Notes under the pieces: model-generated
Seen by the model: only the letters and a program-made list of their open reading frames with translations
Told to the model about the DNA's origin: nothing
The model's database searches: none
Translations under genes and position numbers: made by a program
Source: a virus
Lineage: Duplodnaviria; Heunggongvirae; Uroviricota; Caudoviricetes
IMG/VR virus record: IMGVR_UViG_2778261121_000004
Strand: one strand, 5' to 3'
DNA: 8,610 bases
In this document: piece after piece, positions 971 through 8,610 of the stretch
How positions within the stretch are numbered: the first letter of the stretch is position 1
Layout of the letters: each line of letters opens with the position of its first letter

Positions 971-987
971 TTAGTTCATGCCGTATT
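971..987 (-). other. Remnant of fis 3' end (Tyr-Gly-Met-Asn-stop); probable attachment-site core and island boundary
   Basis: Plus-strand ttagttcatgccgtatt is the reverse complement of AATACGGCATGAACTAA, which encodes ...YGMN-stop, the C-terminus of Fis as I recall it. It lies 85 bp upstream of yhdJ, where fis natively sits. The next in-frame codon upstream is a stop (986-988), so only the last codons are present and the sequence diverges into island DNA. Confidence 0.5.
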
Positions 988-1115
988 AACAAAAGCGGTG
1001 TTTTTGCTCGTTTATACCAGTTCAATGTTGTTCACATAACATTATGATTTTACTGGTTTACTCCTTATTTCTTGTTCATTACTTCGTGCTGTTGTTCGTC
1101 TTCGTACATAACAAT

Positions 1116-1137
1116 GTGTAGTCAGCGGTGTAGTCAG
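1116..1137 (+). repeat. Tandem direct repeat GTGTAGTCAG x2 upstream of int; candidate recombinase arm-type or regulator binding sites
   Basis: Exact 10-bp copies at 1116-1125 and 1128-1137, about 45 bp upstream of the int start codon. Confidence 0.45.
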
Positions 1138-1182
1138 TGCTATGCTGTTTCTTAAATGAACTAACTTTAAAGGCTCATAGCT

Positions 1183-2406
1183 ATGGCCGGTGGAACGAAC
1201 AAATTAAGCGATGCATCATTGCGTAAAATGATAGGCCGTGCCAGTCCCTCAGACAACTTTTATGCAGATGGGGATGGCTTAAGCATAAAAGTGTCAAAGG
1301 TTGGTGTTTTAACCTGGTACTTCACCTGGCGAACAGGAGGACGCTCAACCGCTCCCCAGCGTCTAAAGCTGGGAAACTATCCAGATCTTTCTATAAAGGC
1401 CGCGAGAGAAAAGCGAGAACAATGCCGCGCGTGGTTGGCTGAAGGGAAAAGTCCAAAGCATCAGTTCAACATTACTATGCAAGAGACGCTAAAGCCGGTG
1501 ACAGTGAAGGAAGCTCTGGAGTACTGGATCACAGAGTACGCCAATGATAACCGGGCGAACGTCGAGCGACATAAGGCTCAATTTGGAAAACACATTTATC
1601 CTTACATCGGAAATCATCCCCTTGCCCTTTGTGAGACGCGCCATTGGCTAGAGTGCTTTGATCGCACAAAGAAAGAATCACCAGTAGCTTCCGGCTATCT
1701 CCTCCAGATGTGTAAGCAGGCGCTTAAATTCTGTCGTGTTCGTCGCTATGCAATAAGTAATGTGCTTGATGATCTCACCGTGCAGGATGTAGGCAAAAAG
1801 CAGAGAAAACGAGATCGGGTACATACCGATCAGGAAATATGTGATATCTGGCATGCCATGTCAGGCAAGAGGTTTAAACCTTACTATGCCTCGTTACTCC
1901 AGATCCTGATCATGTTTGGATGTCGTTCACAAGAGGCGAGATTATCAGAGTGGAGTGAGTGGGATTTCAAAAACTGGATCTGGACTGTTCCAAAAGCACA
2001 TAGTAAAGGTGGTGAAAAAATAGTTCGCCCGGTCCCGGAGGCCGCCAGACCTTTTATCGAATCCTTGTTCAAGCAACATAAAGATAGCGGTCTTCTGTTA
2101 GGCGAAATCAAGAAACCGGAAGCGGTCAGCCAGTGGGGGAGAACTTTGTATAAGAAGCTCGACCATACAGAGTCATGGACTCTTCACGATTTACGCCGGA
2201 CTTTTTCCACTACGCTTAATAATATAGGGATTGCACCACACATTGTAGAGCAACTCTTAGGGCATACCTTAGGCGGCGTGATGGCTATTTATAACCGAAG
2301 TCAGTACCTGCCTGAAAAACTTGACGCACTGAATAAGTGGATGGAACGGTTAGGATTGCTTACCGCCAATCATACGAATGTAACTATTCTAAAGGTAGCA
2401 AAATGA
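1183..2406 (+). CDS. int: Site-specific tyrosine recombinase/integrase, P4-like
   Basis: 407 aa. N-terminal arm-binding-type domain, and C-terminal catalytic signature: box I Arg (FGCRSQEA), HDLRRTF, LLGH, and catalytic Tyr in AIYNRSQY. SD AAAGG sits 9 nt upstream of ATG 1183. Confidence 0.92.
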   Translation: MAGGTNKLSDASLRKMIGRASPSDNFYADGDGLSIKVSKVGVLTWYFTWRTGGRSTAPQRLKLGNYPDLSIKAAREKREQCRAWLAEGKSPKHQFNITMQETLKPVTVKEALEYWITEYANDNRANVERHKAQFGKHIYPYIGNHPLALCETRHWLECFDRTKKESPVASGYLLQMCKQALKFCRVRRYAISNVLDDLTVQDVGKKQRKRDRVHTDQEICDIWHAMSGKRFKPYYASLLQILIMFGCRSQEARLSEWSEWDFKNWIWTVPKAHSKGGEKIVRPVPEAARPFIESLFKQHKDSGLLLGEIKKPEAVSQWGRTLYKKLDHTESWTLHDLRRTFSTTLNNIGIAPHIVEQLLGHTLGGVMAIYNRSQYLPEKLDALNKWMERLGLLTANHTNVTILKVAK

Positions 2407-3158
2407 CAAAAAGTGAATGGCCTCGCGTATATTACCCTCTTGATCTTGCTGCCAAAAAGATGAATTGTTCCACTGAGGATATATTGCATCTAGGGGCCAC
2501 AAATAGACTGGAAATATGCGCATATATTAAAGGTGTGGAATTGTCTCCCGATGGTTTTAACTTTAATGTTACTTTTGATGAAGATGACGAATATGTGTTA
2601 AATGAAATAACTGAAAATAAGTGTATTATAAGTGATCTATATCAGATAATACTTTTTGAATATAATGACAACACAATAATTAGCGAAGTTGATTTGAAAC
2701 CACGTGGGTGGTATGCGAATGATTTAAATGGTTTTTTTGCTATGTGTTCAAATGATTTGGTTGACATTGAACTTTCTGGAGGACTCACTTCCTTTGAAGT
2801 GAATATTAGTGAGTTATCTACCCCTAACATTGATGATAGAAAACCCATTGAAATTACCAATATTAATGATCTTGTCATTACTGAAAACATGCTGGTAGTT
2901 ATGGGCAAGGAGATAGAAAACTTTAATGCATCAGTTTCACCAAGTATTAGAGGTAAAATAGACGCCCCAAAAACAGAGGCTAAAAAAGCAGAACTAATAT
3001 ACTGCCTTTTAAAAATGATCCCTGAGTTATCTGGTGTTGATTTAGATAACACTCCGATAACGAAAATTACCTCCATGATAGAAGAAGTTGCAGCAAAAAA
3101 AGGTGTTGCTCTTCCGTCAACGCACTGGCAAACATGGAAAAGGTATTTACGGAGGTAG
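2403..3158 (+). CDS. Hypothetical protein, AT-rich cargo gene, translationally coupled to int
   Basis: 251 aa. ATG 2403 overlaps the int stop (ATGA, 2403-2406) and has an AAAGG SD. The central part is about 28-32% GC by eye, against about 50% for flanking genes. Composition is rich in D/E/N/I/K, which is protein-like. No motif recognised. Confidence 0.6.
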   Translation: MTKSEWPRVYYPLDLAAKKMNCSTEDILHLGATNRLEICAYIKGVELSPDGFNFNVTFDEDDEYVLNEITENKCIISDLYQIILFEYNDNTIISEVDLKPRGWYANDLNGFFAMCSNDLVDIELSGGLTSFEVNISELSTPNIDDRKPIEITNINDLVITENMLVVMGKEIENFNASVSPSIRGKIDAPKTEAKKAELIYCLLKMIPELSGVDLDNTPITKITSMIEEVAAKKGVALPSTHWQTWKRYLRR

Positions 3159-3160
3159 CA

Positions 3161-7139: not shown

Positions 7140-7153
7140 CGGGGAGAAAGAGG

Positions 7154-7327
7154 GTGAACCTGACCGAACGCGAAATATCAATCTTTGAAACTCTTGGTGA
7201 GACCGTCCGCGAAATGATTCAGGAGGCCATGAATGTGCATCAGGCCGAATTGCAGGAACAGGCCGGGCGGATAGCACGGCTTGAAAGCGAAGTTGAAGGG
7301 CTGATCAGCCTGCTGGGGGAACATTAA
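7154..7327 (+). CDS. Putative small coiled-coil protein (57 aa, GTG start)
   Basis: Not in the ORF track. Purine-rich SD GGGGAG (7141-7146) lies 7 nt before GTG 7154. Translation is VNLTEREISIFETLGETVREMIQEAMNVHQAELQEQAGRIARLESEVEGLISLLGEH, with a heptad-like charged/hydrophobic pattern. It starts 15 bp after the upstream stop. Confidence 0.3.
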   Translation: MNLTEREISIFETLGETVREMIQEAMNVHQAELQEQAGRIARLESEVEGLISLLGEH

Positions 7328-7598
7328 AGGCTATCGGAGCCGCTTATTGTTTGCTGACACTCATTCGATAGTTGAATGCAAGTGGAAATCATAGTGTTAG
7401 TGAATGACATGCGGGGAGGGGGGGATTTTCGGGGGAAAAGCCGATCGCCCCGGACACCGCCACCTCTCTCACGCACAGAAAAAATAGCCCTTTGAGGGGG
7501 TATAAACATGTTTACAAGCCAGGGGTTAACAAATTTACATAACTTATTGTTATTAAATGATTGTTAGTCGAAAAATGTTTACAGGTAGCACCCATAAA

Positions 7599-7629
7599 GT
7601 TAACTGCATTGTTAACATCCTCTGTTAAC
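7599..7629. promoter_or_regulatory. Three GTTAAC motifs at 12-13 bp spacing upstream of the terminal gene; candidate regulator binding array
   Basis: GTTAAC at 7599-7604, 7611-7616 and 7624-7629, with a fourth at 7525-7530. ATGTTTACA is repeated at 7508-7516 and 7575-7583, and AAACATGTTT (7504-7513) is a perfect palindrome. Confidence 0.3.
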
Positions 7630-7689
7630 TCTGACGTTGAGCAGGCTGTTAGTTTTATGAGTGATACTGTCCAAAAAACAGGTAATTTA

Positions 7690-8610
7690 ATGAAGCATTT
7701 AACAAGTATTCGCGCAGCTCGCTATTTTCGAAAAGCAGGCCGTGCCGGTGTTATCGAACTGGCAACCAGTGAAAAAGATCCCGCAGCGGTGGCCCTACTT
7801 AAATCAGTTATTCCGGCATTGAGCACTGCTAACACGATGCTTGTTGCAAACGATAGTCAGGCGATTGAGCTTTCAACAAACCTTCTTGCTGACTCAGTTG
7901 TTGGGAACATCTTATCCAGCGCTCTTGAAATGCCGTTTAACGTCAAGGCTGACGTGATCAAAGGGTGTGATGCGGACTGGATCAAGGAAGGGCAAAAGAT
8001 CCGCGTGAAAGCTGGTAGCGCACACGGCAGAATTCTTTATCCGTACAAGCTGGGGACGCTGATCGTTATTGATGAAGAAATTGAAAGCATGGCAACACCG
8101 GGAACGGATAAAGCTATTTACAGTATGTTAAAAAGCGCTGCTGTAGAAAAAATGGATCGCACCTTCCTTTCTGATGCGGCAGAAGTGGTAGAGCTGTCTC
8201 CAGCCGGTGCACTCAAAGACGCGGTGATTGCTTCCAGCTATAAAGAATTGTTTAAGATCCACGCGGCAAACGGCAACAATCTAAAAAGCTCATTTTTGAT
8301 TATGCCAGTTGATACGCTGCTGGAAACTTCCGGCGATTTCCTCCGCGTGGTGGAGAAAACAGGCGCAACGGTTCTTACAAGCCAGTACGCCAAAGGCGTG
8401 TCGCTCATTGATGCGGGTAACATGATGATCAACATTGGCGGCACTGTGATTGATTCATCTAATCAAGGCTCTATTGATATGGATGACGGCTCGTCCGGCA
8501 TCGCTGCTGTAAGCCTCTTTCAGGCTCTGGCGATGGCATATCGCGCGAAAACATTTTGTGACTGGATGCCGTTGGCTGGTACTAAGCCCGTAACGGTTTT
8601 ACAGGCCTAA
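7690..8610 (+). CDS. Hypothetical protein (~306 aa); possibly a virion-structural or packaging protein of the satellite
   Basis: Stop at 8608-8610. ATG 7690 has AGGT 6 nt upstream; alternative starts are ATG 7657 and the track's TTG 7561. It is rich in Ala/Ser/Gly/Val/Ile, with no P-loop, HTH or Cys motifs. The structural role is inferred only from position after the replication module. Confidence 0.6.
   Translation: MKHLTSIRAARYFRKAGRAGVIELATSEKDPAAVALLKSVIPALSTANTMLVANDSQAIELSTNLLADSVVGNILSSALEMPFNVKADVIKGCDADWIKEGQKIRVKAGSAHGRILYPYKLGTLIVIDEEIESMATPGTDKAIYSMLKSAAVEKMDRTFLSDAAEVVELSPAGALKDAVIASSYKELFKIHAANGNNLKSSFLIMPVDTLLETSGDFLRVVEKTGATVLTSQYAKGVSLIDAGNMMINIGGTVIDSSNQGSIDMDDGSSGIAAVSLFQALAMAYRAKTFCDWMPLAGTKPVTVLQA

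Follow-up and report, generated by a model that had tools for sequence, protein, structure and literature searches.

The DNA considered here, IMG/VR virus record IMGVR_UViG_2778261121_000004, is 8,610 nucleotides long (referred to as the window, meaning the whole stretch that was analysed) and covers about 90% of a satellite-type island of 8.5 kb, including its left junction; the island is inserted at the 3′ end of the chromosomal gene fis. The best explanation for it, and in our judgement a highly likely one, is a fis-site phage-inducible chromosomal island (PICI) that was inserted by its own integrase, supplied a replacement for the end of fis, and would have a life cycle driven by a helper phage. 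The junctions and repeats of the island, the identities of its genes, and the homologies of its cos-like stretch and its capsid gene have been established here.

Insertion at the 3′ end of fis

The left junction comprises the following features, with positions given in the window; numbers preceded by L refer to comparison loci, such as that of Escherichia coli GPEC1186 (L001).

1-885, minus strand: yhdJ (adenine-specific DNA methyltransferase), chromosomal flank, as annotated in RefSeq for GPEC1186 and for the unoccupied site of E. coli Nissle 1917
908-987, no strand assigned: left attachment site (attL) identity block of 80 nt, consisting of 63 nt of the fis-yhdJ intergenic region and the last 17 nt of fis, defined by gapped alignment and a repeat finder
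971-987, minus strand: fis 3′ remnant, AA-TAC-GGC-ATG-AAC-TAA, which holds the crossover core and equals the fis end of the empty site
1090-1138, plus strand: integrase-proximal arm of the island attachment site (attP), a 49-nt stretch repeated with 84% identity at the other island end (L001 21355-21403)

The gene yhdJ is the native downstream neighbour of fis and is 99.9% identical across thousands of E. coli genomes. Positions 971-987 of the window read TTAGTTCATGCCGTATT, the reverse complement of AATACGGCATGAACTAA, which is the final 17 nt of fis (the last two bases of a Lys codon followed by Tyr-Gly-Met-Asn-stop). The chance expectation for a given 17-mer is ∼1e-6 in 8,610 nt, counting both strands. 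An original prediction, made from the letters of the window, had recognized this string as the last four codons and stop of fis, had noted that the upstream frame runs into a stop and then into non-fis sequence, and had proposed site-specific insertion into the 3′ end of the gene. Comparison with other genomes bears out this account. The same 17 nt are found at the end of fis in the uninterrupted fis-yhdJ site of strain Nissle 1917 (L002 2471-2487). In the window, a TAA codon lies directly upstream of the remnant and in the same frame, and from 988 onwards the sequence is unrelated to fis. Homology to the window ends at or near 987 in nearly all complete E. coli genomes (5,424 of 5,426).

An intact fis and a second copy of the core had been expected at the far end of the element, and both were found there. 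E. coli GPEC1186 differs from the window by 2 mismatches over 8,610 nt and has a second core copy 8,498 bp away, abutting an intact fis that is followed by dusB; the protein encoded by this fis has the same accession as that of Nissle (WP_000462905.1). The same layout, with a second core beside intact fis, is present in GCA_033697145.1 (4 mismatches to the window). The right end of the island lies ∼860 bp past the window. The comparison with the empty site, the second core at an intact fis, and the gene content support a satellite-type integrative element inserted by site-specific recombination in the fis 3′ end.

Attachment sites and integrase arms

The repeat at the island ends includes the 17-nt core of the original prediction and is considerably longer than it. 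The true direct repeat is the 80-nt block at 908-987, which recurs at the right attachment site (attR) as 79 nt with one T fewer (L001 21407-21485). Within the block lies the fis terminator hairpin, GGCGC...GCGCC (916-941). The attR copy therefore carries the 63 nt downstream of fis in addition to the end of the gene, and in RNA folding attR forms a hairpin identical to that of the empty site, with the same U6 tract and only one A fewer in the 5′ A-tract. It had been suggested that the island might alter the 3′ untranslated region and terminator of fis; as the gene end and terminator are both copied at attR and fold alike, such a disturbance is not supported, and with fis and its terminator restored a regulatory effect on fis is unlikely.

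The one-nucleotide difference between the repeats helps to locate the crossover. Five T residues are present in attL and in the empty chromosomal site (attB) compared with four in attR, as seen in two independent assemblies, which puts the crossover to the right of this indel, within 943-987. In a Salmonella relative, the sole mismatch between attL and attR is found slightly to the left of the stop codon of fis, at a distance of a few nucleotides, and in an Enterobacter relative the identity between them covers only about 34 nt around the fis terminus. Each of these three observations is consistent with a core located in the final codons of fis. The consensus core reported for fis PICIs, TACGGCATGAACTAA, is present in both copies (window 971-985 and L001 21469-21483).

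Further repeats flank the core. The motif GTGTAGTCAG is doubled at 1116-1125 and 1128-1137 (two-nt spacer, 12-nt spacing), and the doubled form recurs in the same orientation at L001 21381-21402, within the 49-nt repeat. A doubled motif is found at the same offsets from the core (−88/−76 and +145/+157) in islands of E. coli D8, where it reads GTGCAGTCAG, and of Salmonella; the form common to the fis islands of E. coli and Salmonella is GTG(T/C)AGTCAG (GTGYAGTCAG). It was not found in the Enterobacter relative. From their sequence and placement, these doubled motifs are most likely arm-type sites of the integrase. A different doubled arm motif, TGTATTGC, is characteristic of helper-embedded PICIs and is reported to be absent from the attPs of fis PICIs (PMC10111431); in this island GTGYAGTCAG seems to fill its role.

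Both attachment-site repeats also gave Rfam matches to STnc40, at 25 bits against a cut-off of 45. These sub-threshold matches were treated as chance because there is none at the Salmonella fis locus. Near the right end of the island, outside the window, is a 39-nt inverted repeat (L001 20768-20806 / 21053-21091, 90% complementary). It brackets a 70-aa open reading frame (ORF) with no family match (region L001 20759-21225), and this ORF is flanked by two pseudogene fragments of a Rha regulator. The second fragment is 87% identical to rha genes of Klebsiella phages and ∼78% identical to rha of P22-like and Shiga toxin (Stx) phages.

Capsid homologue and cos-like site

The late module of the island, which occupies the right-hand part of the window, has three kinds of feature.

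6924-7327, plus strand: two small ORFs of the late module (6924-7139, 71 aa; 7154-7327, 57 aa)
7405-7635, plus strand: predicted mimic of a cos packaging site, with a G-run (7413-7424), the core GACACCGCCACCTCTCTCACGCACAGAAAAAAT (7453-7485) and six GTT(A/T)AC repeats (7510-7629)
7657-8610, plus strand: short HK97-fold major capsid protein homologue, 317 aa, the last ORF of the window and the element's only virion gene

Several lines of evidence identify the 317-aa protein. All 11 of its close homologues match PHROG 617 ('major head protein'), and a profile search links it to proteins of Pfam PF05065. An AlphaFold model built on a 32-sequence alignment reached pLDDT 75 and pTM 0.72; it replaced a first model from 11 sequences that was unusable (pLDDT 47). 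Foldseek returned 211 PDB matches at E<=1e-3, and among the matches listed all 50 are HK97-fold capsids or encapsulins, including the procapsid entry of the Staphylococcus aureus island SaPIbov5, which contains the capsid protein Ccm. In addition, hhalign aligns the protein with the capsid half (residues 290-634) of a protease-capsid fusion, 645 aa long, that is encoded by phage BP-4795 (99.9% probability, E 2.7e-35). By these profile comparisons, the island gene is a protease-less paralogue of the capsid protein of BP-4795/1717-type phages.

The same phages are indicated by the 330-nt gap upstream of the capsid gene, in which the cos-like stretch lies. This region is about 80% identical over ∼100 nt to 84 records of lambdoid, mostly Stx-converting, phages. 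The match required a distant search mode; a near-identity phage search of the whole island gave only a 117-nt patch of the Rha gene. In BP-4795 and phage 1717, the match falls in the gap between the genes for the HNH endonuclease and the small terminase subunit (terS), and a stretch of ∼230 nt in the island copies this gap, which is presumed to be the cos site in lambdoid Stx phages of the BP-4795/1717 type. The GTT(A/T)AC repeats of the island resemble TGTTAAC repeats in the phage gap, and the core GACACCnCnnCCnCnCTCACGCnnAGAAAAAAT is kept in satellites of five genera while the flanks diverge.

The location of cos between these two genes is indicated by HK97, the model phage for packaging of this kind, where the HNH gene and terS lie at opposite physical ends of the genome. 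In addition, the HNH-terS gap of a capsid-forming PICI (cf-PICI) in E. coli D8 (L004 29077-29135) contains a G-run followed by a CCGGACACCG motif that is related to the window core; the alignment of the two scores 34, compared with 17.6 ± 2.4 for shuffled sequences. This similarity suggests a cos architecture common to the HNH-type packaging systems of phages and PICIs. On this basis, 7405-7635 is likely to act as a cos mimic that would let the terminase of a helper phage package the island.

Every member of the island subfamily described below has the 71-aa and 57-aa ORFs, in this order, upstream of its capsid gene, with sequences that are 36-76% identical. Their only match is a weak one to PHROG 3255, whose function is not annotated. 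The 57-aa ORF is named "antitermination protein NusG" in RefSeq, a name that has no support from Pfam, NCBIfam, or PHROG; just upstream of the cos-like site, it is conserved at 39-73% in all subfamily members.

Integration and early genes

Twelve of the 13 island genes are on one strand. Those upstream of the replication module are listed here.

1183-2406, plus strand: tyrosine integrase with N-terminal arm-binding domain (Pfam Arm-DNA-bind_3 4e-16, Phage_integrase 1e-16), reading into the island
2403-3158, plus strand: 251-aa protein, 35% GC compared with an island mean of 47%, overlapping the int stop codon in a conserved int-alpA slot
3255-3479, plus strand: AlpA-family excisionase / transcriptional activator (Phage_AlpA 1.5e-16; PHROG 2790 'excisionase and transcriptional regulator')
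3616-3795, minus strand: YlcI/YnfO-like small protein (RefSeq name), PHROG 228 'Arc-like repressor' 2e-6 (ribbon-helix-helix), the only opposite-strand gene
3925-4131, plus strand: Icd-like protein 1 (NCBIfam phage_ICD_like 3.7e-20; PHROG 1743), 48% identical to the product of the P4 cI/kil region
4124-4522, plus strand: 132-aa protein (RefSeq coding sequence), with a 33%-identical homologue in the Salmonella island
4519-4809, plus strand: Icd-like protein 2 (NCBIfam phage_ICD_like 6.9e-13)
4838-5161, plus strand: DUF4222 protein (Pfam DUF4222 1.2e-13), directly upstream of the replicase gene and in the same place in sister islands

The integrase is 66-83% identical to those of fis-site islands in E. 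coli, Salmonella, Enterobacter, Klebsiella, and Serratia. The 251-aa protein had no match in Pfam, PHROGs, NCBIfam, or PADLOC, and homologues with ∼30% identity occupy the same slot in the D8, Enterobacter, Klebsiella, and Serratia islands. In the Salmonella island, the slot is filled by an unrelated DUF6387 protein, which showed no similarity to it. The match of the 3616-3795 protein to NCBIfam YlcI_YnfO_N is below the family cut-off. No family match was obtained for the 132-aa coding sequence in PHROGs, NCBIfam, or PADLOC, nor in Pfam for an overlapping 137-aa translation (4109-4522). PADLOC found no anti-phage cargo among ten island proteins. Genes for tail, lysis, portal, protease, and terminase functions were not found in scans with Pfam, PHROG, and NCBIfam, in which the capsid ORF was covered by PHROGs, NCBIfam, and PADLOC.

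Some of these genes recall satellite P4, and the integrase had at first been described as P4-type. That description holds for the domain architecture (Arm-DNA-bind_3 plus Phage_integrase) and not for the sequence, which is only 24% identical to P4 Int over the N-terminal 274 residues. The wider possibility is that the island is a P4-like satellite dependent on helpers of the P2 family. In favour of this are the arm-binding integrase, the AlpA protein (46% identical to P4 ORF88/Vis), Icd-like protein 1, and doubled arm repeats on both sides of the attachment core that resemble P4 attP. P4 itself integrates at a tRNA-Leu gene. When the 13 island proteins were compared with P4 by tblastn, matches were limited to int, ORF88/Vis, and the cI/kil region, with no counterpart of sid, psu, delta, epsilon, or alpha. 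Rfam detected no C4/isrK immunity RNA, and both the capsid homologue and the cos-like site suggest lambdoid phages of the HK97 type rather than P2, implying another type of helper. A P4-like satellite is therefore an extremely improbable description of the island.

Replication module

Replication genes and sites lie between the early genes and the late module.

5158-6573, plus strand: replication protein with a RepA-type (superfamily 4, AAA_25) helicase, 471 aa (Pfam AAA_25 2e-40; PHROG 2850 1e-179)
6573-6790, plus strand: presumed replication origin, with five co-oriented GTGCGCG iterons (6577, 6597, 6658, 6744, 6760) and degenerate copies
6804-6826, plus strand: intrinsic-terminator-like hairpin, ACCGGGGTAACCCGGT followed by T7, after the origin

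The replicase matches the structure of RSF1010 RepA (1g8y) with E 1e-4. Over its first ∼125 aa it shows 54-62% identity to the N-terminal parts of primases in the D8 (L004) and Salmonella (L005) islands; the Salmonella primase is of the D5_N/DUF5906 type. From these alignments, the protein looks like a domain swap, in which the N-terminus of a sister-island primase is joined to an AAA_25 helicase like that of RSF1010 RepA. Compared with Pri-Rep proteins, which combine primase and helicase, only the AAA_25 RepA-type helicase domain was detected in it.

The iterons surround an AT-rich palindrome (6628-6663), and all five GTGCGCG copies in the window fall within 6573-6790. An origin function for this region is proposed on the basis of its layout, which is like that of PICI origins beside the replicase gene (PMC6092414).

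RSF1010 is a mobilisable plasmid, and the resemblance of the replicase to its RepA helicase raises the question of whether the island could spread independently of phage particles, by conjugative mobilisation for instance. In that case the product of the capsid-like gene might be an encapsulin-like shell or an anti-phage decoy, and encapsulins are indeed among the top structural matches of the protein. This too is very unlikely. No relaxase or oriT-related family turned up in Pfam, PHROG, and NCBIfam scans. The relationship of the capsid-like protein is specifically with a phage capsid protein, and its gene lies directly downstream of a copy of the HNH-terS gap of the same phages; AlpA, the Icd-like proteins, and the fis site are hallmarks of satellites.

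Relatives and distribution

The capsid gene of ∼315 aa is the marker of a subfamily of islands, 8.5-10 kb in size, that occurs in E. coli, Salmonella, Enterobacter, Klebsiella, and Serratia. All of them adjoin fis and have a copy of the fis-terminal 15-mer at each end, and the same holds for the 15-kb cf-PICI of E. coli D8. Within the subfamily, the order of the late module is constant (71-aa ORF, 57-aa ORF, cos-like site, capsid gene). For replication, members have an AAA_25 helicase or a D5_N/DUF5906 primase, and the N-terminal ∼125 aa are common to both. Some relatives carry a further gene beside the short capsid gene. In Klebsiella (L012 11025-13436), Serratia (L015 7152-9548), and Enterobacter (L009 10960-12978), this gene encodes either a full-length homologue of a tape-measure protein (PHROG 2854, E 1e-196 and 1e-165) or a tail-fibre/spike protein with a Tail_spike_N domain. 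These are unusual cargo for islands of ∼10 kb.

The relationship with the D8 island raises the possibility that the element is a decayed, immobile remnant of a larger cf-PICI, D8-like and 15 kb long, from which protease, portal, connector, HNH, and terminase genes have been lost. The D8 island uses the same site, has a 74%-identical integrase and the same early gene order, and includes a full head and terminase module. One capsid gene is kept in the present element, Rha pseudogene fragments lie at its right end, and it is held by only 1 of 5,426 complete E. coli genomes. Several observations run counter to this. The capsid gene is not derived from that of D8, since the two proteins are unrelated at the profile level (hhalign probability 0.3%). 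Both attachment sites and both arm repeats are intact, and the exact integrase sequence is present on 127 public contigs. The compact late module, with intact ORFs, is conserved in five genera, which argues for a selected design. Decay from a larger island is thus unlikely, and a compact PICI in its own right remains the preferred interpretation.

About 184 of 5,427 matching records (from the 5,426 complete E. coli genomes) have their best match to the window in the 60-90% identity bands. In the 40 such records listed, identity is lower because yhdJ is joined there to a related integrase gene, and by extrapolation this would also apply to the remainder.

Copies of the exact island differ little. 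The window and GPEC1186 differ only at 267 (C/T, in yhdJ) and 8283 (A/G, in the capsid gene), and two further assemblies differ from the window at 3-4 positions, which indicates near-clonal copies in at least four sequenced sources. Other rearrangements were seen in the neighbourhood. E. coli AR_0017 was rejected as an example of fis insertion, its element being inside yhdJ; there, three consecutive tyrosine recombinase genes and a hypothetical gene split yhdJ (L023 1228-5160). In GPEC1186, about 9 kb away from the island, the IS21-family element ISEc62 (istA/istB; L001 2122-4088) interrupts a gene for an amino-acid ABC transporter permease, which holds the position of yhdX in E. coli D8.

Proposed life cycle and significance

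A model for the life cycle of the island can be put together from its parts. Integrase recombined the island attP with the 3′ end of chromosomal fis. The attP carries a copy of the last 17 nt of fis and of the 63-nt terminator region downstream of it, and this replacement copy leaves a complete fis with its own terminator at attR, and the 17-nt stub with the original terminator at attL beside yhdJ. The island would lie dormant until a helper phage sets off AlpA-dependent expression and excision. The RepA-type helicase would then drive replication of the island from the iterons immediately downstream of the helicase gene, which would act as origin, and helper HNH, TerS, and TerL proteins would cut and package the resulting concatemers at the mimic of a BP-4795/1717-type cos. 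The capsid paralogue probably co-assembles with the helper capsid protein or replaces it, giving small heads that fit 8.5 kb, as proposed by analogy with SaPIbov5 Ccm. Each of these steps, from induction and excision to replication, packaging, and capsid redirection, is proposed from homology and gene layout.

Some points weigh against this model. The assignment of cos is based on position and conservation, and the similarity of the region to the physical end of HK97 is marginal, being reached by 16 of 2,000 shuffles. As that alignment is mostly driven by the G-run, it did not serve to locate the cut site. Deletion of the capsid homologue in another E. coli satellite, EcCICFT073, did not relieve interference with lambda (PMC6092414), which indicates that a satellite capsid homologue is not always Ccm-like. 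The Rha pseudogene fragments could be a sign of decay. Finally, no excised or circular form of the island was seen. An 8,479-bp contig in Logan, considered as a possible circle, was rejected because its ends fall within the 80-nt repeat, as happens when an assembly breaks at a repeat.

Insertion of PICIs at the fis terminus, with replacement of the gene end and terminator, was already known and has been catalogued in thousands of genomes. The detailed proof of fis and terminator restoration given here is a modest addition. A second addition is a testable assignment of helpers: the cos-like site and capsid paralogue point to lambdoid phages of the BP-4795/1717 type, many of them with Shiga toxin genes. 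If this link is correct, the islands could affect how Stx phages spread in E. coli or how much phage is produced, and they could provide a simple Gram-negative model for redirection of capsid size by a capsid paralogue. More tentatively, and with rather more doubt than confidence, the element may stand for a compact lineage of PICIs in the Enterobacterales that specifically exploits lambdoid phages of the HNH-dependent cos type, many Stx phages included, by means of a cos mimic and a capsid paralogue, as a Gram-negative analogue of the SaPIbov5 Ccm system. Satellite-sized heads would then be made and the yield of Stx phage could fall, and in sister elements that carry a tape-measure or tail-fibre gene the piracy would also reach parts of the tail.

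Comparison with known satellites

By its sequence features, the element is of the published "fis PICI" type, and it agreed with that type in each of the defining features examined. Mageeney et al. (2023) mapped 2,642, and later 3,565, fis PICIs (PMC10111431). The original prediction had considered a protein-gene target worthy of note; this catalogue, and the description of fis-end integration as a hallmark of the PICMIs (minimalist phage-inducible chromosomal islands) of Vibrio (PMC10803314), make it a familiar one. In PMC10111431, the consensus identity block of fis PICIs is TACGGCATGAACTAA, which "can extend further" into the terminator, and excision is demonstrated experimentally for Klebsiella Kpn47.16.fis. 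The supplement includes E. coli islands with the exact 17-nt block (about 9 kb) and with the exact 80-nt block (15 kb); the present element was matched there at the level of these identity blocks and size classes. The likeness to fis PICIs covers insertion at the fis terminus with a TACGGCATGAACTAA-containing block reaching the terminator, an inward integrase followed by AlpA, zones for integration, Icd/Bro-like proteins, replication, and late functions in this order, and the absence of tail genes. The present island differs in having doubled GTGYAGTCAG arms, where the doubled TGTATTGC arm is reported absent from fis PICI attPs, and in its cos mimic and helper assignment, neither of which is mentioned in the part of PMC10111431 available.

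The cf-PICI of E. coli D8 has the same attachment site, the 74%-identical integrase, the early module, and the G-run/CCGGACACCG motif between HNH and terS. Unlike the present island, cf-PICIs encode capsid, protease, portal, connector, HNH, TerS, and TerL (bioRxiv 10.1101/2022.09.08.507074). D8 has this full set, whereas RefSeq, PHROG, and NCBIfam annotation of the island identified only a capsid homologue, which is of another capsid lineage.

PICMIs of Vibrionaceae also insert at the end of fis, with 17-bp direct repeats and an essential core of int and alpA (PMC10803314), and they resemble the island in small size, fis-end integration, int, and alpA. They differ in having a DUF3987/DUF5906 primase and no capsid-remodelling gene, in being packaged in concatemeric form into virulent phages' full-size heads, and in that complete examples are known only in Vibrio (PMC10803314). 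The AAA_25 helicase, capsid homologue, cos mimic, and E. coli host rule out a PICMI.

With Gram-negative PICIs in general, the island has in common a mostly one-directional int-alpA-replicase order, an iteron origin beside the replicase, a size of 8.5 kb (compared with ∼8-15 kb), and the absence of lysis and tail genes (PMC6092414). Two of them offer a parallel for the late module. EcCICFT073 has cos sites and a capsid homologue (c1499), and is packaged by a cos-type mechanism by lambdoid helpers; PmCI172 has a capsid homologue and forms small capsids (PMC6092414). A satellite-encoded capsid homologue and a cos-type site are thus common to these elements and the present island, where the cos function is predicted. 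The attachment site is a different one, with no mention of fis in PMC6092414, and, in contrast to their Pri-Rep type of replicase, only a RepA-type helicase domain was detected here. No head-decoration gene was detected in this island, and its cos mimic resembles the HNH-dependent BP-4795/1717 type rather than the cosN of lambda or phi80.

The remaining comparison is with SaPIbov5 of S. aureus, whose Ccm protein redirects capsid size (PMC8569155). SaPIbov5 belongs to another lineage and host and is regulated differently, by the Stl repressor in place of AlpA, and its counterparts in the present island are known from sequence. On paper, the two are alike in carrying a copy of a helper HNH-type cos together with a single homologue of the helper capsid protein (PMC5052747, PMC8569155).

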